NCBI GenBank assembly: GCA_963816185.1
Contig: CAWFJJ010000001.1
Location: 632,464-696,463, forward strand
Reading direction: 5' to 3'
Length of the DNA: 64,000 bases
DNA from: Thermoanaerobaculia bacterium
GTDB lineage: Bacteria; Acidobacteriota; Thermoanaerobaculia; UBA5066
The number at the start of each line of letters is the position of its first letter. Positions within the stretch are counted from its first letter, which is position 1. The notes under the pieces are model-generated. The model did not search any database. It was not told the DNA's origin and worked only from the letters and a program-made list of their open reading frames with translations. The position numbers and the translations under genes are program-made. Below are positions 15,639 through 59,483 of this stretch, piece after piece.

Positions 15639-16999
15639 TCACCTTTTCTGTCCGACGAGGCGCCTCTTCAGAACCGCGGCGGCGGCGGCGATCTCCTCGG
15701 ACGACGGCTTCAGGGGGAAGGACGCACCGCGGCGGTAGCGCGGAATCCCGTCCACGAACGTCGCGACCACGTGCGAGCGGTCCATGCTGTAAACGATAGG
15801 CCCGTACGGGTCGTCGCGCCAGGTCGTCGGCTCGGCAAAACCCGAGCCCGGGTCCAGGAGCAGGAGATCGGCCCGCCGCCCTGGTTCGAGCGTGCCGGTC
15901 GGGGAGAGACGAGCGCCGAGGCGCCTTCGGCCGTCGCCATCCGGACGACGTCCCACGCGGAGAGCGCGCCGGGGCCGAGCCGGACTTTCGGGAGCAGCGC
16001 GGCGAGCCGCATCTCCGTGAACGCGTCGAGCCTGTCGTTGCACGGCGCCCCGTCCGCCCCGATCGTCACGGGGATGCCTTGTGCGCGGTATTCCGGCACG
16101 GGACAGATGCCCGAGGCGAGCTTGAGGTTCGAGGACGGGCAGTGCGCGACCGTCGTCCCGCGTGCGGCAAGGAGCGCGCGTTCGGCGTCGTCCGTGTGGA
16201 GGACGTGAGCGAGGACGACGTGCCTTCCGGAGATCCCGACGTCGTCGAGATAGGCCACGTTTCTCTTCCCGGTTCTCTGGAGGACGAGCGCGATCTCTTC
16301 GAGGTTCTCGGAAGCATGCGTGTGGACGAGAAAGCCGTTCGCCCGCGCCCGCGCGGCGACGCTTCTGAGGAGGCGGTCCGTGCACGAGACGGCGAAGCGG
16401 GGGCAATAAGCGACGCGCAGCTTGCCGCCCCCGGCGCCGTGCCATCTCTTCGCGAGGCGCGCCGTCTCCTCGAGAGCTTCGTCCATGCCCGCGCGGAGCT
16501 CGTCCGGGTTCGTCGCCGGGTCGTCCATGAGCGCGTTTCCGCTCGTGACCCGCACGCCCGAAGCGTCCGCCGCGCGGAACACGGCGTCCGTGTGGCGCAC
16601 GGTCCCCATGTCCAGGATCGCGGTCGTGCCGCCCGCGAGGAGCTCCGCGAGGCCGAGCCGCGCCGAGACCTCCAGCGTCGCCTCGTCGTGCGCCGCTTCG
16701 CCCGGCCAGACGTGCGTCCTCAGCCACGGGAGGAGCGGCAGGTCGTCCGGGCCGTTCCGGAGCAACGTCTGGCAGAGGTGGATGTGCGTTTGGACGAATC
16801 CCGGCAGGAGCCAGAGGCCGCGCGCGTCGAAACGCTCGAGAGGCCGCCCGGCCGCCGCGATCTCGTGCGCACGGCGCTCCGCGTCGCCGTGAAGAGCCGT
16901 GATCACGCCGTCCTCGGCGAGGAGATGCCCGCTTTCCGTCACGTCCGAAGGACGGGTCATCCCGATGACTCGAGCGTTCTCGACGAAAAGGGGGATCAC
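15639..16999 (-). CDS. metal-dependent amidohydrolase (MtaD / 5'-deoxyadenosine deaminase-like); frameshift near 15905
   Basis: PGFVQTHIHL, HTHASE, HCPSSNLKLASG, GADGAPCN; C-terminal GTLEPGRRADL is in another frame. Confidence 0.88.
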
Positions 17000-22065: not shown

Positions 22066-23221
22066 TCACGAAATCAACATCGCGTCGCCGTAGCTGAAGA
22101 AGCGATATCCCTTCGCGACCGCCTCCCGGTAGGCGGCCAGAACTCGCTCGCGTCCCGCGAACGCGGACACGAGCATGAGCAGCGTCGAGCGGGGCAGGTG
22201 GAAGTTCGTCAGGAGCGCGTCCACGATGTGAAACGTCGCGCCCGGGCACGAGGAAGAGGTCCGTCTCGAACGCGCCTGCGGCGACCGTGCCGCCGTGCGT
22301 GCGAGCCGACGCCTCGAGCGTGCGCACGGACGTCGTGCCGACCGCGACGACGCGACGCCCGTCGCGTTTCGCATGGTTCACGCGTTCGGCGGTTTCCCCG
22401 GGGATTTCCGTCCGCTCGAGATCCATCCGGTGCTCTTCGACGAGATCGACTTTTACCGGCTTGAACGTGCCGAGGCCCACGTGCAGGGTCACGCGTGCGA
22501 GGTGCACTCCCTGCGCTTCGATCTTCGCGAGCAGGTCGGGAGTGAAGTGCAGCCCGGCCGTCGGCGCCGCGATCGCACCGGGGCGATCGGCGAACACGGT
22601 CTGGTAGTCGATCGCATCCTGGGCGTCCGCGACGCCGAGCGGGCGCCGGATGTAGGGTGGCAGGGGAGCGGACCCGAGGGAGGGGAGATCGTCGAGGAGA
22701 AAAGACGTTTTGCTCCCGTGCTTCGTGAAACGGAGAACGTAGAGGCCGGCTTCGGAGCGAGTCGTTTCGCCGGTTTTCTTAGAAGGTGAATGGGGCATGG
22801 GCTGGGCCCGAGCCGCGCTCGCGAGCGCCACGGCCTCCCACCCCCCTTCGAAGAAAAAGCGCCGTCCCGGTTTGACGCGCCGTCCCGGTTTTGCGAGACA
22901 CCGCCAGAGCTCCTCTTCTTTCTTTTCCCTTTTCGAAGCAAAATCCGAAATCCCCGGTTCCTCCGACATCTTCGAAACCAGCAGGAATTCCGTCCTTCGC
23001 CCCTTCTCGTCCGTTCCGAAAATCCGCGCCGGGATGACTTTCGTGTCGTTCAGGACAAGGACGTCACCCGCGTGGAGAAGCGACGGCAGATCGGCGACCA
23101 CGCGATGGGCGAACGCGCCCGTCCGGCGGTCGAGCGTCATGAGGCGTGCGGTGCCGCGCGGGGCGGGCCGCTGGGCGATGGATTCGGACGGCAGCACGAA
23201 ATCGAAATCCGCGACGTCCAT
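22066..23221 (-). CDS. queA: SAM:tRNA ribosyltransferase-isomerase; frameshift near 22241; motif-associated loop insertions
   Basis: DFDF.LP…[69 protein letters not shown]. Confidence 0.95.
22771..22950. repeat. motif cluster inside queA
   Basis: TTTTCTTAGAAGGTGAA (centre 22780), reverse copies centred at 22851 and 22936. Confidence 0.8.
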
Positions 23222-23259: not shown

Positions 23260-24875
23260 ATGCGGTCGAGGGCCGGAGTCGTCGTGGGGCTCTATGCCCT
23301 TCTGGCGCTTCTCACCGTCCCGGTTTTTCCGCACTTTCTCTCGCCGAACGAGTTCACGCGCTGGGCGCTCGCCGCGTCGTTCGTCGAGCACGGCACGCCG
23401 GAGATCTCCTCCGTTCTGCCGCTCCTCGGGCCGGCGTTCGAGGATGTCTCGGAGAAAGGCGGGCGCGTCTACTCGAACAAGGCACCCGGCGCGACGCTCG
23501 TCGCCCTGCCGGGGTACCTTCTCGCGCGCCCGTTCTCGGGAGCGCCCTCGCCTTCTTCGATGCGACCGGTTCTGTGGGCGATGCGGCTCTTCGGTGCGAC
23601 GGCGCCCGCAGTGCTGCTCGCGCTCGTCCTGTTCCACGCGGCCGTGAGGTCCGGGGCTTCTCCCTCGCGCGCCGCGAGTGCGGCATTCGCTCTCCTTTTC
23701 GCGACGCCGCTCTTCACATACGGCCTGCTTCTCTTTTCGCACGCCCTCGCCGCGGCGTGCCTCTTCGGAGCGTGGGTCGCGCTCTTCCATCCGGGCGATC
23801 CTTCCCGCGTGTTTCGCCGCGATGTGCTTGCGGGCGCGCTCCTCGGTCTCGCGGTCCTCTCGGAGTACCCGGCGGCCGTGCCGGCGGCCGTGCTCGCCCT
23901 TTGCGCGGTCATCCCCGCGCCCCGGCGCGCCCTCGCCCTCGCCGCGGGGGGTGCTCCGTTCGCGGCCCTTCTCGGCGCGTACGATCTGGCCTGCTTCGGG
24001 GGAGTCTTCGAGCTTTCTTCCGCCCACGAGCTCTCGTCGAGCTTCCGGTCGCTCGCCTCGGCGGGTCTCTTCGGCATCGCCCTGCCGTCTCCGGAAATCC
24101 TCCTTCGCCTGCTCGCGGACCCGTCGAAAGGCCTCCTGGTCTTCTCGCCGTTTCTCCTCCTGTGGCCCGGAGCGCTTCTCTCGTCCCGCGCCGCGTTGCC
24201 TTTCGGGGGCCGCGTCGCGCTCGTGCTCGCTCCTCTCTCGCTTCTCCTCCTCTATGCGGGCTACCCGAACTGGCACGGCGGGTTCAGCGTCGGGCCGCGG
24301 TATCTCGTCGCGGCTCTGCCGTTCCTCGTCTTCCCGTTCGCATTCGGGAAGGGGGGATTCCTCGAGAGCGCGCTCGTCGGTGCTTCGACGCTGGCCGTTT
24401 GCGCGACGACGCTCGCGTTCCCGTTCGTCCCTCCCGGGTTCGCGTTGCCGTGGGGCTCATTCGCGGCGTACTTCTTCGAGAGGGGCTCGACGCTGCCGAA
24501 CGTGTTGCAGATCGTTGCGCCCTCGGCGGCGCGCTTCGTCCTGCCGGCAATCGTGGCGGTCGCGGCGTACTTATCCTTGGAAGGGAAGAGAGAAGAGGAT
24601 CCGAAAGCCGAAGGGGAAGGGTGGGAATCGCTTTTTTCCTTGGAGCGGCGGCCTGCGCATTCCTGGGAATTCTCCTTTCTAAGCAAGTTATTCTTTCTTC
24701 TCCTTCCCTTCTTCTCCAGCGTGCGTACGTCGCCGATGTTTACTTCGAGCAGCGGGGCACGCTCGATGAGGAGATCGCCCGGACCGGATCCCGGCAGCCG
24801 CGTCTCCTCGCCCGGCGCGAGCGGGAACTTTCGCTTCCCCCGCCGCCCTGGCCTTTTCCGCCGGCATCACGCTGA
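23260..24875 (+). CDS. multi-TM membrane protein (GT-C / glycosyltransferase-like); frameshift near 24610
   Basis: Many TM segments, [27 protein letters not shown]; C-terminal hydrophobic part continues in another frame to TGA 24875. Confidence 0.7.
24570..24715. repeat. degenerate motif pair in the membrane-protein gene
   Basis: TCCTTGGAAGGGAAGAGAG (centre 24578) and CTCCTTTCTAAGCAAG (centre 24681). Confidence 0.55.
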
Positions 24876-52813: not shown

Positions 52814-53101
52814 TTACTTCTTTGGTCCGAGGATCGAGTCCTTCGCGGCTTTCGCGACGCGGAACTTCACGACGCGCTTCGCCGGGATCTTGATCGCCTC
52901 GCCGGTCGCGGGGTTGCGGCCCATGCGCGCCTTGCGGTTCACGAGCACCAGCTTGCCGAGGCCCGGCATCGTGAACGAGTTCTTCGCCTGCTTGTAAGCA
53001 AGGGCGGCGAGCTCCTCGAGGTACTGCGCCGAGACCTTTTTCGTGAGTCCGGTCTTTTCGGCGAGGTGTTCTGCGATCTGTGATTTCGTCATACCAGCCA
53101 T
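52814..53101 (-). CDS. HU-family DNA-binding protein
   Basis: MTKSQI…PGLGKL…ARMGRNPATGE.IKIPAK.VVKFR. Confidence 0.95.
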   Translation of the reverse strand: MAGMTKSQIAEHLAEKTGLTKKVSAQYLEELAALAYKQAKNSFTMPGLGKLVLVNRKARMGRNPATGEAIKIPAKRVVKFRVAKAAKDSILGPKK

Positions 53102-53190
53102 GTGAATCCGTCCTTTCTTCAATTCGCTCCCGAGTCGGGATGCGCGCATTCTAGAGGGAAAACGGGGTTTCGTGTCGATACACTGGCACG

Positions 53191-54259
53191 GTGCGAATAG
53201 TTTTTTTCGGATCGCCGTCCTTTGCTCTCCCGGCGCTCGATGCGCTCCTAGCGGCGGGCCATCGTGTTCCGCTCGTCGTTTCCCAGCCCGGGAAACCTGT
53301 CGGACGAAAGGGCGAGGTGACGGATCCGCCTGTCGCCGCGCAGGCGAAGTCGCTGGGAATCCACGTCTTCCAGCCCGCGACGCTGAAGGACGACGCTGCT
53401 GTCGCGCGCCTCGCCGAGGTGCGCGCCGACGCATTCGTCGTCGTCGCGTACGGAAAGATCCTCGCGCAGAGGGTGCTGGACCTGCCCCGGCTCGGCTGCC
53501 TGAACGTGCACGGCTCGCTCCTCCCGCGCTGGCGCGGGGCCTCGCCCGTGCAGGCGGCGATCCTCGCCGGGGACGCGGTCACGGGCGTATCGATCATGAA
53601 GATGGACGCCGGGATGGACACGGGCCCGGTGTACGCGACGCGGGAGACGCGGATCGGGGAGGAAGAGACGGTTGAAGAGCTGGGCGCGCGGCTGGCGCAA
53701 ATGGGGGCTGATGCGCTCGTCGATACGTTGTATTTCTTAGAAGGTGAAGAGAAGTAGCAGGGGCGCACGGCCCACGCCGGCGCCTCCGCACCGCCGGGCT
53801 TCTGGTGAATGCCCGCGCGGCATGCCGCCGGCGCCGGGAGGGACGGCCCCTCACGCGCCTTCTCAGAAAATCTTCCTTCCCCCGGTCCCCCAGGACGACT
53901 CTCTCGCCACCTATTGCCCGAAGATCTCGCGCGAGGACGGCCGTGTGGACTGGTCCCGGCCCGCGGCCGAGCTTGTTCGAAGAAGCCGTGCCTTCACCCC
54001 ATGGCCCGGCCTCTTCACCCTTCGAAGAAATACGCGCTTGAAGCTCTCGGGCCTCTCGCCGGTTTCGCGAGATGTTTCCGGCGCGAGAGGGAGCAAAGAA
54101 TCCCCCGGGGTTCTCCTCGAAGCGGGTCCGCGCGTCGTCGTCGCGTGCGGGGAAGGCGCGGTCGCGGTCGGCGTGCTGCAGGCAGAAGGCCGCCGCGCGC
54201 TCCCGGCGGCCGAGTTCGTGCGCGGCGAGCGCGTCGCGCCCGGCGAGCGCTGGGGCTGA
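53191..54259 (+). CDS. fmt: methionyl-tRNA formyltransferase, interrupted by a ~130-bp motif-bounded segment with a stop and frame change
   Basis: MRIVFFGSP.FA, VVAYG.IL, NVHGSLLPRWRG.SP, GMDTGP; C-terminal PQD…ATY.PKI..EDG..DW…RAF.PWP in the +1 frame. Confidence 0.92.
53731..54031. repeat. motif copies inside fmt
   Basis: ATTTCTTAGAAGGTGAAGAGAAG 53732-53754; CCTTCTCAGAAAAT 53858-53871; CTCTTCACCCTTCGAAGAAAT 54011-54031. Confidence 0.85.
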
Positions 54260-55605
54260 TGGCCGATTCGCGGCCCGTCCGCGAGCGGGCGCTCGGCGTG
54301 CTCGTTCGCGTGGCTCGGGACGGGGCGCACGCGGCGCCGCTCGTGGACGCGCGCGGACGCGACCTGCCGCCTCGCGACCGCGACTTTCTGCGCGCGCTCG
54401 TGAAGAAGACCCTTCGGGGCGCCCTGCGCCTCGACCACGTCCTGTCGCGGCACCTCCGGCAAGCGCCGGAATCGCTCGATCCGGCGGTCCTCGCCGCGCT
54501 TCGCCTCGGAGCTGCCCAGCTTCTTCTCATGGATCGCGTCCCGCCGCACGCCGCGGTCGGCGAGACCGTAGCGGCGGTGCGCCGCTTCGCGCCGAAGGCC
54601 GCCGGCCTCGTGAACGCCGTCCTCCGCCGCGTGGCCGAAAAGGAGAAACGGCCCGGCGCCGTCGTGCTTCCGGGAAGCGCGGATCCGGTCCGCCGGCTCG
54701 CGCTCGAGACTTCGCATCCGGAGTGGCTCGTGGCGCGGTGGGTCGCGGCCTTCGGCGACGAAGCCGCCCGGGCAGCGCTCACGGCCGACGAAGAGGACGC
54801 GCCGATCGATCTCCTCGCGGATCCCCGGGCCGGGACGCCCGACGAGATCGTCCTCCGTCTCGCCGCCGACGGCATCGAAGCCGTGCGCTCGCCGTGGGCT
54901 CCGCTCGCCCTCACCGTGACGTCCGGGAACGCCGCGTCGAATCCCCTCGTCACATCGGGCGCGGTCGCGGTCGTCGACGTCGCCGCTCAGGCGATGGTGG
55001 AGCTCGTTCCGGCCGCGGACGTCGTGGCCGACCTCGCCGCGGCACCGGGCGGCAAGACGCGCACGCTTCTCGCGACGGGACGCGCGCGCCGCGTCGTCGC
55101 GCTCGAGCGGACGGCCTCGCGCGCCCTCAGGCTGGCCGCGAACCTCGCGGCGGCCGGACGCCGGGACGAAGCGCTCGTCGTCCGTGCGGATGCCGGGCGC
55201 GCGCCCCTGCCGCCCGAGCGCTTCGCCTCGATTCTGCTCGACGCTCCGTGCTCGGGGACGGGCACGCTTCGCAAGAACCCGGAGATTCGCCTTCGCCTCA
55301 AGCCGGAGGACCTGGCCGGTTTCGCAAGGGTGCAGAGGCGCCTGCTCTCAGCGGCGCTCGACCTCGTCGCGAAAGGGGGCACGCTGGTTTATGTGACGTG
55401 CTCGCTCGAGCGAGAGGAGAACGAAGACGTCGTGGATGCGTTGCTCGCCAAGAGGCCGGAGTTCAGCCGCATCGTCCCGGCTGCGGCTGGCCTCCCCGCG
55501 CCGCTCGGCGCCGCCGTCTCGCCCGCGGGCCTCGTGCGCGTCCTGCCGGGCGCCACCCACGACGGGTTCTCGGCGGCCGTGCTGCGGCGCAAATCTCCGC
55601 GTTGA
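54259..55605 (+). CDS. rsmB: 16S rRNA m5C967 methyltransferase (RsmB/Sun)
   Basis: NusB-like N-terminus, SHPEWL, DLAAAPGGKT, LLDAPCSGTG, YVTCS…ENE. Confidence 0.92.
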   Translation: MADSRPVRERALGVLVRVARDGAHAAPLVDARGRDLPPRDRDFLRALVKKTLRGALRLDHVLSRHLRQAPESLDPAVLAALRLGAAQLLLMDRVPPHAAVGETVAAVRRFAPKAAGLVNAVLRRVAEKEKRPGAVVLPGSADPVRRLALETSHPEWLVARWVAAFGDEAARAALTADEEDAPIDLLADPRAGTPDEIVLRLAADGIEAVRSPWAPLALTVTSGNAASNPLVTSGAVAVVDVAAQAMVELVPAADVVADLAAAPGGKTRTLLATGRARRVVALERTASRALRLAANLAAAGRRDEALVVRADAGRAPLPPERFASILLDAPCSGTGTLRKNPEIRLRLKPEDLAGFARVQRRLLSAALDLVAKGGTLVYVTCSLEREENEDVVDALLAKRPEFSRIVPAAAGLPAPLGAAVSPAGLVRVLPGATHDGFSAAVLRRKSPR

Positions 55606-56708: not shown

Positions 56709-58102
56709 AGGTCCGAGGCGGGACCGTTCTCGCGTGGAGCCTCTATGAGCTCGGGGCGACGAGCTTCGCGATGAACATGCTCTCGTTCTACTTTCCGCTC
56801 GACATCGCGACGCGCGTTGCGAGGGGGAACGAGAGGTTCTCGGTCGTTTTCAGTTGTTCGATGCTCGTGGTTGCGATCGCGGCTCCCCTCCTGGGCACTC
56901 TTGCCGATCGCCGTGGAAAGCGGCGACTCCTGATCCCGTTCGTCCTCGGCGGCATCGCCCTCACGGCGCTCGTCGGTGTGACGGGCCCCGTGTGGCGCGT
57001 CCTCGCATTCTTCGCGTTCGCGAACATCGCGTTCCAGTGCGCTTACGTCTTCTACAACGCGCTGCTGTCCGACGTCTCGGACTCTTCGAACTCCGGCCGC
57101 GTGTCGGGCTACGGCGTCGCCGCGGGTTATGTGGGCTCACTCCTCGGAATGGTCATTGCCGTGCCCTTCGTTTCGGGAGCGGCGCGAGCCAAGCTGCCTC
57201 CCTTTCTCGGTTCCGTCGTCGATGCCCTTTCCGTCGCGGCGCTTTCTTCGAATGTGAATGACGCCTGGGTGCGCCGGAACGCCTACCTGCCCACGGCTCT
57301 GCTCTGGCTCGCCGCGGCCGTCCCGCTGCTTTTCTTCGCGCGCCTGCCGAAATTGAAGAAGGATATTTCAGCGAATGAGAAAGCGGGCACGGGCAGCGGT
57401 GGCGCAGCAGGCGCCGCGCAGGCCGTCCACAACGCAAAATTGCCTTCTAAGAAATCTCTCTCTTCTTCGTCTCCGATTCGAGACGTCCTCCAGACGATCC
57501 GATCTTTGCCGCAGACGCCCTCTCTCCTCTGGTTTCTCGTCGCGAACTTCCTCTACATCGACGTGATCCACACGATTCAAGTGCAGATGGGGACTTATTC
57601 CCGCTTCGCGGTGGGTCTGGACGATGGGGCGGTCCTGAGGCTTCTGCTCACGGCAACGGCCGTGGCGGTCGTGGGTGGGCTCCTGTACGGTTTCCTCTGC
57701 CAGCGCGTCACGATCCGCACGGCGACGCTCGTGGCGCTCGGGAACTGGGTCGTCGTGTTCGTCCTCGCGTTCTGCATCCGCGATCCGAAGACGTTTCTAC
57801 TCGTCGGCGTCCTCGCCGGCATCGGCCTCGGCGGCATCAAGGTGACCGGCAGGCTCGGGCTGATCGCGCTCGTCCCGAAAGAGCGCACGACGGAGTTCTT
57901 CGGCTTCTTCACGCTGGCCGGCGAAGCCGCGTCGGTCCTGGGGCCGTTTCTCTGGGCGGCCACCCTCACGCTCTTCCCCGACAGGAGCCCGGCCGGCTAC
58001 CGCGCGGGCATCTCCGTACTCTTCGTCGTCCTCGTCTTCGCGGTCGGTGCTTTTCTCAGAGTGCGGTTCCCGAAGGCCGAACCCGCGCGTTATCCCTCGT
58101 GA
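56705..58102 (+). CDS. MFS transporter (UMF1/ATG22-like)
   Basis: AWSLYE, P.LG.LAD..G, FYNALL, G.VSG.G…GY.G, EFFGF; central loop carries a motif-bounded segment. Confidence 0.88.
   Translation: MKVRGGTVLAWSLYELGATSFAMNMLSFYFPLDIATRVARGNERFSVVFSCSMLVVAIAAPLLGTLADRRGKRRLLIPFVLGGIALTALVGVTGPVWRVLAFFAFANIAFQCAYVFYNALLSDVSDSSNSGRVSGYGVAAGYVGSLLGMVIAVPFVSGAARAKLPPFLGSVVDALSVAALSSNVNDAWVRRNAYLPTALLWLAAAVPLLFFARLPKLKKDISANEKAGTGSGGAAGAAQAVHNAKLPSKKSLSSSSPIRDVLQTIRSLPQTPSLLWFLVANFLYIDVIHTIQVQMGTYSRFAVGLDDGAVLRLLLTATAVAVVGGLLYGFLCQRVTIRTATLVALGNWVVVFVLAFCIRDPKTFLLVGVLAGIGLGGIKVTGRLGLIALVPKERTTEFFGFFTLAGEAASVLGPFLWAATLTLFPDRSPAGYRAGISVLFVVLVFAVGAFLRVRFPKAEPARYPS
57243..57470. repeat. motif copies inside the MFS transporter gene
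   Basis: Centres 57248(f), 57371(f, degenerate), 57449(r, CCTTCTAAGAAATCTCTCTCTTCTTC). Confidence 0.78.
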
Positions 58103-59483
58103 AGCGCGCCGTCGTCGGGCTCATCCGCTTCCTCGTCGATCTCTTCTATCGGCGTGTCGAGGTGTCGGGTCTCGAGAACGTGCCGGGCCAGGGGCCGGTC
58201 CTCTTCGTCGCGAATCACTTCAACGGCCTCGTCGACCCGATGCTCGTCCTCCGCGTCGTCGAACGCGGGGTCGTCTTCGTCGCGAAGTCCACGCTCTGGC
58301 GGATTCCGATCCTGCGGCCGCTCCTCGACCTCCTCGGTTGTGTGCCGGTCGTGAGGAAAGGGGAGGAGGACCGGGAGATTTCTTCGAAGGGTGAAGAGAG
58401 GAACCGCGGCGCGTTCGAAAAGCTGGCGGCTGTTCTCGAGAGAGACGGCGCGATCCTGATCTTCCCCGAGGGGCGGTCGCACTCCGATCCACGGCTTTCG
58501 GAGATCCGGACGGGCGCCGCGCGTGCTCTTCTCCTTTCTAAGAAATCCCCGGTCGTCCTTCCTGTCGGCCTCTGGTTCACGAAGAAGGAGGAATTCCGGT
58601 CCGACGTGCTCGTCCGCATCGGTCCGCCGGTCGCGCCCCCGGCCGCTTCGACCGTCGAGGCCTGGACGGCCGCGATCGAGAAGGCGCTCCTCGACGTCAC
58701 GTTGAATGCGGACGACTGGGAGGACCACGAGGTCGTCGCGGCGGTTGATGCGCTTTATGGGACGAGGATTCCGGAGGAGGGAAAGACGGGGGGGAGAACC
58801 GGGGATTTCTTAGAAAGTGAAGAGAGGAATTCGTCCTCGCAGTTGGCGCGCTCGTTCCGGAATCGGCAACTCCTTCTCGCGGCTCGCGACGTGCTGAAGC
58901 GTGTAGAACCCGGCGCGGTGGCATCTGTCGCGCGGCGCGCCCGCGCCCTCGACCACCTTCTAAGAAAAATCGGTCTCTCTTCCGGTGCCCTCGACGATCC
59001 TCCGCCTGCAAATGAGGTCATTGCCTCGGAACTCTCAAAGCTCTTCTCTTCATCCTTCTCGGCTTTCCGGTCGCTGTCCTCGGCGTGGCCGCGTGGTGGG
59101 TGCCGTACCGCTTGTGCGGGGTGATCGCGAACCGCGTGCGTGGAGTCTCGGAGCAACGCGACCAGATTGCACTTTACAAGCTTCTTGCGGGAGCTCTCCT
59201 CTTTCCCCTCTTCCTTGCGCTCGAGGCCACCGCCGTCTGGAGTTTCGCAGGCGCAGGTTGGGCCGCCCTGGCCTTCGCCCTTCTTCCATTCGCAGGAATC
59301 TCTTCTCTTCTCTTCTTCGAGTACACGTCATGGCGCGAGAGTCAGGCGCGGGAGCTCCTCGCGCTCGCGTTCATGCCCGGCGGGATCGCGCGTCTGCGCG
59401 CCCGGCGCGACGCTCTCGTCGCCGAATGCGACCGGCTGGCAGGGGTCTACCGGAGTCGGACCGGCGATAATCGGGTTCCGTGA
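58099..59483 (+). CDS. PlsC-like acyltransferase with C-terminal TM region; frameshift near 59035
   Basis: NHFNGLVDP, FVAKS.L, IFPEG.SH, TGAAR. Confidence 0.85.
58360..58975. repeat. four alternating motif copies inside the PlsC-like gene
   Basis: Centres 58384(f), 58540(r), 58811(f), 58962(r); perfect 20-bp IR 58534-58553 / 58798-58817. Confidence 0.88.

Follow-up and report, generated by a model that had tools for sequence, protein, structure and literature searches.

A translated interspersed repeat in the Fmt linker of a Thermoanaerobaculia bacterium, and a frame break that is most likely an assembly artefact

The fmt locus

The DNA analysed here (the window) is a stretch of 64,000 nucleotides from contig CAWFJJ010000001.1 of assembly GCA_963816185.1 (positions 632,464 to 696,463), a Thermoanaerobaculia bacterium whose genome, G000 below, comprises 5.09 Mb in 30 contigs with 67% G+C and is 94.9% complete. 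The window carries the single fmt gene of this genome on its plus strand, and the list of open reading frames (ORFs) gives this gene in two parts. The N-terminal part (53191–53757, frame 1) starts at GTG 53191, runs for 188 codons and ends in ...ALVDTLYFLEGEEK, followed by TAG at 53755–53757; it matches the Pfam family Formyl_trans_N (PF00551) over profile positions 1–180 of 181 (E 1.6e-42). The C-terminal part (53744–54259, frame 2) is one base out of frame and open from GTG 53744 to the stop codon at 54257–54259; it contains ...APSQKIFLPPVPQDDSLATYCPKI..., its second-frame translation runs ...APSQKIFLPPVPQDDSLATYCPKISREDGRVDW..., and from residue 60 of the frame it matches Formyl_trans_C (PF02911) over profile positions 1–99 of 100 (E 2.7e-22). 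Both Fmt domains are complete but lie in two frames in this assembly, and they form one polypeptide if one base is skipped. Identity to Fmt of the same genus is 80–90% for the N-terminal part and 69–86%, over full-length matches, for the C-terminal one; the best solved relatives are the Fmt structures 5uai and 1fmt.

The two domains are separated by a segment whose ends form the inverted repeat ATTTCTTAGAAGG / CCTTCTCAGAAAAT (53733–53744 and 53858–53869; 12 nt, 92% complementary, 113 nt between the arms). An earlier interpretation made from the letters and translations alone (the sequence-only reading) had described fmt as split by a motif-bounded segment with an in-frame TAG, and this description is confirmed, as are the positions of the bounding strings and the resumption of the gene one base out of frame. 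That reading missed that the bounding motif is a genome-wide and genus-wide repeat, whose left half belongs, in every relative of the genus examined, to the native Fmt reading frame (FLEGEE). The left copy of the motif occupies 53732–53752, with its core TTCTTAGAA at 53734–53742, and is read in frame as (Y)FLEGEE; the right, inverted copy occupies 53858–53876, with its core TTCTCAGAA at 53860–53868, and is read in frame 2 as PSQKIF. Between them, the GC-rich interior (53756–53857), homologous to the two-part insert of G007 and to the inserts of the six other long-form genomes and of L039, is open in frame 2 (SRGARPTPAPPHRRASGECPRGMPPAPGGTAPHA) and holds a decayed second left motif at approximately 53800–53811 (TTCTGGTGAATG). 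The distance from the (E/D)TL to the CPKI sequence is 205 nt in this genome versus 75–90 nt in relatives with a short linker; the excess over an 84-nt form of the linker is 121 nt, i.e. 40 codons and one base, which agrees with the approximately 40 extra codons counted previously. The RNA of the segment folds at −75.1 kcal/mol (z = −2.0), weakly better than dinucleotide shuffles, 8 of 200 of which were as good, and a search of 53000–54400 against Rfam found no family, intron or ribozyme, just three matches far under the thresholds.

Position and size of the frame break

Comparison of DNA and protein with three relatives (G007, G003 and G011) establishes both where the break lies and how large it is: it is confined to 53745–53757, a site that includes the TAG, and amounts to one base extra, or two missing, relative to these genomes. 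Frame 1 is collinear with the Fmt of G007 up to ...FLEGE, and frame 2 from ...SRGA... on. When AAG-T (53752–53755) is taken as a single step, a continuous Fmt frame results; AAGT was read through as K from codon 54 on, since an earlier AAG-T exists at K53. The protein repaired in this way aligns with that of G007 in one high-scoring segment pair, which spans the junction with 78% identity.

The Fmt linker in related genomes

The comparison set for fmt consists of the 21 same-genus genomes with a match to the gene. Looking at fmt in sister genomes had been proposed by the sequence-only reading, and the outcome is uniform: the gene is open in 21 of 21 (321–380 amino acids or more, one extending to 806), and in all of them the left motif is read in frame as the linker residues (E/D)TL-x-FLEGEE, slightly altered in three. 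According to their (E/D)TL-to-CPKI span the linkers fall into 13 short ones (75–90 nt, e.g. ETLYFLEGEEGRNPLPQ), one of intermediate length (99 nt), which keeps the outer flank of the right motif and is a deletion derivative, and 7 long ones (162–243 nt). A metagenome contig, L039, likewise has a long insert in fmt. None of the eight long forms contains a stop or leaves the frame; they are homologous to one another and to the insert in the window; they share a pattern of FLEGE..., a central PRG-x-x-GAE, and then APS(K/R)KIF-x-PP(L/V)PQD, and differ by several insertions or deletions (indels), every one of which preserves the frame. The insert of G007 consists of two parts with a second left motif, and that of the window resembles it. 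In the Fmt of G003, 37 residues (183–219) replace 10 residues (195–204) of the solved Fmt 5uai, between the two Pfam domains.

Judging from the open frame in 7 of 7 long-form genomes and in L039, the insert is translated in the relatives, and because the segment stays open through many indels in eight lineages, no skipping mechanism would be needed to explain it. In a tree built from 19 of the 21 Fmt sequences with the linker excluded, each of the three well-supported clades includes long forms, so that at least three changes are needed; from this scatter the long insert appears to be old and kept in frame. Read alongside the deletion derivative, the tree suggests an ancient insertion followed by several losses. 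The locus is also variable at close range. Short-read contigs from two runs of one study (X1 and X3; soil and freshwater-sediment metagenomes) match 53696–53748 and 53835–53961 without a mismatch, and carry 46 different letters in place of the 86 of the assembly (53749–53834), a net difference of −40 nt that restores the frame by length. Since the flanks are 100% identical and the interiors differ, the interior of the fmt insert must be polymorphic among very close strains.

A scan of metagenomes with the exact 27-mer of the left flank gave no match, and one with the 20-mer ACGTTGTATTTCTTAGAAGG gave three loci, with fmt present in L039 only. In the two other contigs, L040 and L041, ACGTTGTATTTCTTAGAAGG stands in non-fmt contexts, one of which reads ...KTLYFLEGKW.... 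An AlphaFold2 model of the G003 Fmt, built with 19 close sequences, had a mean predicted local distance difference test score of 52.9, with the C-terminal domain as low as the insert, and was uninformative on the loop.

A genus-wide family of short inverted repeats

A search of the genome with 53725–53880 returned matches through the two ends only, at 52 other places. The core TTCTTAGAA, an AT-rich 4+1+4 palindrome, occurs 337 times, on both strands, versus a mean of 1.9 and a maximum of 20 for 200 shuffled 9-mers. Its oriented consensus of about 25 nt has a purine-rich lead followed by ATTTCTTAGAAGGtGAAgAGgg, and in a complete copy, inverted ends of about 20 nt (consensus rrAGATTTCTTAGAAGGtGAAGAGgg on the left, the reverse complement of this on the right) enclose a GC-rich, variable interior. 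A profile of this consensus identified, once duplicates were merged, 694 sites scoring at least 16 bits, which yield 205 convergent left...right pairs; the nearest comparable control is the 94 pairs of the reversed sequence, counted before duplicate hits were merged. Neighbouring exact cores are in the orientation '+-' in 71 cases, versus 13 for '++', 7 for '--' and 6 for '-+'. The core-to-core distance of the convergent pairs has a sharp peak at 74–76 nt (24 pairs), a second spike at 93 nt (10 pairs) and a tail to approximately 300 nt. These counts demonstrate a true repeat family, of which the fmt segment is one member.

The interiors are mutually unrelated, as judged by eye from 45 copies of equal size, and only the ends match between copies. 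Folding was computed for 83 interiors from a random sample of 90 of those among the 205 pairs that lie at most 160 nt apart; with a mean z of −0.12, versus −0.01 for 83 controls, they fold like random genomic DNA, and the idea of a long hairpin was rejected on these grounds. Two further ideas were also abandoned. A small peptide encoded by the 75-nt class, with an ATG after the Shine-Dalgarno (SD)-like end and a TAA in the right end, does not agree with the copies, most of which, by eye, have no in-frame ATG...TAA; an association with promoters, suggested by an apparent excess between divergent genes, vanished when classing was based on gene calls (13 convergent vs. 12 divergent). No autonomous parent stood out among the pairs 600–4000 nt apart, which were listed without closer study, and no Y1 (RAYT-type) transposase (PF01797) was matched in the 94.9% complete G000, a control search having matched 6 of 14 reference genomes.

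Some two thirds of the 205 pairs are located inside called ORFs, the gene calls being crude, and 51 of the 205 are spanned by one ORF with at least 60 coding-like codons on each side, likewise a crude count in which some ORFs may be spurious. Translation of the spanning ORFs mostly gives (D/E)FLEG... for the left end and ...(P/L)SKK(S/I) for the right. If the repeat carried a signal for bypassing or splicing, other genes should be interrupted by it out of frame. Coding-like ORFs on the same strand abut inside the repeat in 17 of the 205 pairs, and fmt alone is one gene in two pieces; the other 16 gave no Pfam sign of such a split. Where both sides were matched, the abutting genes were tyrosyl-tRNA synthetase and prephenate dehydrogenase, Memo and SufBD, endonuclease III and Wzy, Wzy and Ku, or two complete ABC domains, and the remaining pairs had no Pfam match on one or both sides.

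The 12-mer TTTCTTAGAAGG is present in 24 of 24 same-genus genomes (21–210 copies; at most 3 for the same string read backwards) and in none of 16 genomes from the order's two sister families, a figure that rests partly on two unpublished genomes (G025 and G030). Named public records containing the motif 21-mer are nearly all metagenome-assembled genomes labelled Thermoanaerobaculia or Acidobacteriota. In 400 kb of G011 there are 63 strong sites, 42 of them in DNA that aligns across the site to G000, and by eye the motif is present at nearly all aligned places shown; identity between the two genomes is 0.82 within the motif and 0.80 in its flanks. Since the sites are mostly orthologous and the motif is barely better conserved than its surroundings, most copies are old rather than the result of recent jumps. 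The AT-ending codons of the motif, TTA, GAA and GGT, are retained in fmt across 21 species; such codons can be taken to be rare in so GC-rich a genome. At approximately 24590–24640 of the window, where a left motif (GAAGAGAAGATTTTC(G/T)TAGAAGGGAAGA...) stands in G011 and G003, some 34 nt are missing from G000; close relatives here differ in whether they have the repeat end.

The window holds further copies at 22776, 33064/33141, 36820/~36900, 45385/~45470, 48041/48117 and 57445, mostly convergent pairs with purine-rich and pyrimidine-rich outer flanks, several of them with a decayed partner (TTCGAAGAA). Four in-frame copies (58380, 58536, 58807 and 58958) are found in an acyltransferase (PlsC-like) gene at 58099–59483. 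There, the pair 58380/58536 encloses the native catalytic motif FPEGR and the pair 58807/58958 another conserved stretch; because these motif pairs enclose native coding sequence, the unit delimited by two ends is not always foreign DNA. A recognisable core is found at three of the four places in at least two of three orthologues (G011, G003 and G008), and at the first place in G008 only, the encoded peptides being conserved in all three. Elsewhere in the genome, five identical ORFs of 377 codons have TTCTGAGAA at the same place (G000:C2:7126, C24:734976, C25:394135, C25:609509 and C25:611491); an insertion sequence present in several copies is the probable explanation, and the occurrence of the motif in it may be coincidental. 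At approximately 128.5–131 kb of G000:C24, a repeat copy is flanked by an ImuB-like (IMS family) ORF and a RecA-like ORF.

None of the described repeat classes fits well the combination of conserved ends, unrelated interiors and 74–76-nt spacing. A plain miniature inverted-repeat transposable element (MITE) fits poorly, given the conserved ends, arbitrary interiors, preferred spacing and retained TTA, GAA and GGT codons, features which leave room for a protein-binding or uptake-type signal. A decaying MITE, a protein-binding site and an uptake-type signal are the candidates for the origin of the family. Among the papers listed by literature searches for the motif and for in-frame palindromic elements in Acidobacteria, the latter judged by titles and the beginnings of abstracts, none dealt with this repeat family.

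Frame breaks elsewhere in the assembly

The break in fmt is not isolated. Within the window, indels of 1–2 nt that are private to G000 relative to both G011 and G003 occur near 15900, 19235, 22248, 23258, 30056, 37245 and 59027, each of them preceding a lasting change of frame, and the 64 kb contain approximately eight private frame breaks. The broken genes with a Pfam match encode an amidohydrolase, QueA, an NDH-2-type dehydrogenase and an acyltransferase. The same test applied to G003 versus G011 gave 0 and 2 frame switches. A further orthologous sample, based on 400 kb of G011 (169 ORFs, 231 kb), revealed 16 switches in 11 ORFs of G000, the genes concerned including those for an aconitase-family enzyme, an Mrp/ApbC protein, an AcrB-type pump, a Ku protein and a sugar dehydratase. 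The gene for the Mrp/ApbC-type Fe-S P-loop NTPase (G000:C30:353995-355093) has five switches in about 1 kb relative to G011 and looks like a place of locally poor consensus; that for a second, DnaE2-like polymerase (dnaE2, G000:C24:123226-125789) is spread over three different frames. These counts establish an excess of private frame breaks in G000, and conclusions drawn from single genes of this assembly need to reckon with about one break per 8–14 kb.

Origin of the frame break

The motif-bounded insert in fmt is genuine, and the repeat family of which it is a member is translated and specific to the lineage. The explanation we favour is that a segment of about 125–140 bp in the interdomain linker of Fmt represents one copy of the lineage-specific interspersed repeat. 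In the genus this copy is old and simply translated, its left end as FLEGEE, its interior as an Ala/Gly/Pro-rich loop and its right end as APSKKIF, which adds approximately 27–53 residues to the linker in the manner of the palindromic elements found in Rickettsia genes. In this assembly a single extra base at the junction of left end and interior (53745–53757) creates the TAG, and this base is most likely a consensus (indel) error of the assembly, the organism itself probably making an ordinary Fmt in one piece, some 355 residues long. The bacterium can be expected to use formylation: the genome has a single fmt and two def genes, both intact, and an intact def is what one would see with a functional formylation pathway. 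The surplus of private frame breaks, the one-base repair and the open frames in the relatives together lead us to attribute the break to an assembly indel, as opposed to a real recent mutation, with a probability of about 0.7. Of the possibilities raised by the sequence-only reading, a one-base error giving a loop of about 40 residues, to which that reading gave no lower odds than to recoding, is therefore the one preferred here, in view of the open insert in 7 of 7 long-form genomes and L039, the repair by one base and the private breaks.

Several observations weigh against this attribution. The sequence around the break, GAAGAGAAGTAG, contains no homopolymer, homopolymers being the commonest site of indels in long reads. 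The error is inferred, the best-matching run in a search of sequencing runs containing 37% of the sampled words; what was compared from four runs were contigs, none of which spans 53760–53831. The sequence in X1 and X3 is another allele and not a correction, as it differs across the whole interior and not by one base. The control genome is not free of switches either, the reverse test on the same orthologous sample giving 6 in G011, and the stop-to-stop ORF test is crude, so that some switches in both directions may be artefacts. Finally, rpoB, rpoC, dnaE, ileS and secA (about 17 kb) are intact; intact essential genes next to broken dispensable ones (such as dnaE2, queA, a Ku gene and radC) would also fit real decay, although zero breaks in 17 kb are not improbable at a rate of one per 8–14 kb.

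The strongest of the rival explanations is that the extra base is real and that fmt is either a recent pseudogene or expressed as two polypeptides, a catalytic N-terminal domain of 188 residues that ends at the TAG and a C-terminal domain starting at GTG 53744 or later. We consider this unlikely, albeit clearly less so than any form of recoding. It takes the sequence as given, in which the last 14 nt of the first ORF are shared with the frame opened by GTG 53744; mutations at the locus are frequent, with another allele of the interior in two runs and several indels between relatives, and the intact long essential genes leave room for a decay of dispensable ones. It has to be reconciled, however, with an fmt that is open in 21 of 21 relatives of the genus and with two intact def genes; moreover AGAAGG directly abuts GTG 53744, which leaves no good ribosome-binding site, and so many private breaks in housekeeping enzymes (aconitase family, Mrp/ApbC with 5 switches, NDH-2) are hard to credit as biology in a free-living soil bacterium of 5 Mb.

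Recoding of any kind appears very improbable. A programmed +1 frameshift at AAG-UAG (53752–53757), in which the ribosome would pause at the stop codon with the SD-like AAGGUGA 4 nt upstream and continue with AGC AGG..., has a marginally smaller chance still. The A-site stop and the SD-like element recall the layout of the RF2 (prfB) frameshift site, and the product would be a complete Fmt, collinear with that of G007; yet re-pairing from AAG to AGU should be poor for tRNA-Lys, the arrangement is not conserved, all relatives examined being in frame and without a stop, and the SD-like string belongs to a motif present hundreds of times at which no other gene is split. The same slight weight is given to the wider version in which the base is real and the ribosome slips or hops at AAG-UAG with the help of the SD-like AAGGUGA of the repeat and the pairing of its inverted ends. 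If such a rescue took place, an interspersed repeat would bring a recoding signal, already complete, into a gene essential for translation. Least credible of all is the bypass suggested by the sequence-only reading, from AAG 53752–53754 over 112 nt to AAA 53867–53869, or else an excision from the mRNA, with ...FLEGEEK-IFLPPVPQDD as the product: although the stop directly follows the putative take-off codon as in T4 gene 60 (excerpt of PMC6551183), there is a Lys codon at either end, pairing of the inverted repeat could juxtapose these ends and the product would resemble the short alleles in length, the segment is open and in frame through many indels in the 7 sister genomes and L039, which indicates selection for its translation and would serve no purpose were it skipped, the gap is 112 nt rather than 50, the codons AAG and AAA are not identical, the fold is matched by 8 of 200 shuffles, Rfam recognises no family, intron or ribozyme in the region, and no other gene of the genome is interrupted by a copy of the repeat.

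The TAG and the change of frame are thus most likely an assembly artefact. When a housekeeping gene of a metagenome-assembled genome appears split or recoded, the sister genomes and the assembly's own rate of frame breaks should be checked first; both checks here point to an artefact. What is left is a genus of soil Acidobacteriota, labelled Thermoanaerobaculia in public records, with hundreds of inverted-repeat signals of about 20 nt that are translated in many genes, and a loop of 27–53 residues which shows how much the interdomain linker of Fmt tolerates.

Comparison with known systems

The bypass of T4 gene 60 is described, in an excerpt of PMC6551183, as having identical take-off and landing codons, a gap of about 50 nt and a stop after the take-off codon. 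The fmt locus shares with it a UAG directly after the last sense codon (AAG TAG, 53752–53757) and, with it and with the mitochondrial byps (excerpt of bioRxiv 10.1101/2022.08.31.505936), an insert derived from a mobile element within a gene; it differs in its gap of 112 nt, in its AAG and AAA codons and in that the relatives translate the insert. An RF2-type +1 shift would have its site conserved among relatives, with a slippery P-site codon; here no relative has the stop or the shift, and re-pairing from AAG to AGU should be poor.

As a family, the repeat resembles the DNA uptake sequences (DUS) of Neisseriaceae and the uptake signal sequences (USS) of Pasteurellaceae in having a core of about 10 nt and an extended consensus of about 30 nt, restricted to one lineage, on both strands, in inverted pairs, and frequent in coding regions in preferred frames. 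In contrast to these, its pairs are 50–300 nt apart and form no tight terminator hairpin, and the identity of the motif between two species (0.82) is hardly above that of the flanks (0.80); the density of DUS and USS is about ten times higher. With the repetitive extragenic palindromes (REP), and the BIME and REPIN built from them, it has in common that a short motif recurs hundreds of times, on either strand, and preferentially forms convergent inverted pairs. According to an excerpt of PMC3733652, REPs are tagged by GTAG/CGTC and mobilised by RAYT (Y1) transposases, whereas no Y1 transposase was found in G000, the core is an AT-rich palindrome and not a GC-rich hairpin, and roughly two thirds of the pairs fall within called ORFs instead of outside genes.

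The closest likeness is to the Rickettsia palindromic elements (RPE), presented in an excerpt of PMC10969869 as 'selfish DNA' in frame within protein-coding genes. Both are dispersed repeats with inverted ends, found inside unrelated genes as well as between genes, and translated in frame, so that the protein gains additional residues at a place that tolerates them; in both, presence or absence varies among related genomes, as in the 13 short, one intermediate and 7 long linkers of fmt. The differences are that RPEs measure about 150 bp with a conserved interior and peptide, whereas here only ends of about 20 nt are conserved, the interiors are unrelated, vary in length, are no more structured than random DNA and in one gene consist of native catalytic sequence, the host is a free-living soil member of the Acidobacteriota, and most copies are orthologous between two species. 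By analogy, the RPE would be the best available model for the insert in fmt, minus the conserved interior that defines an RPE family.

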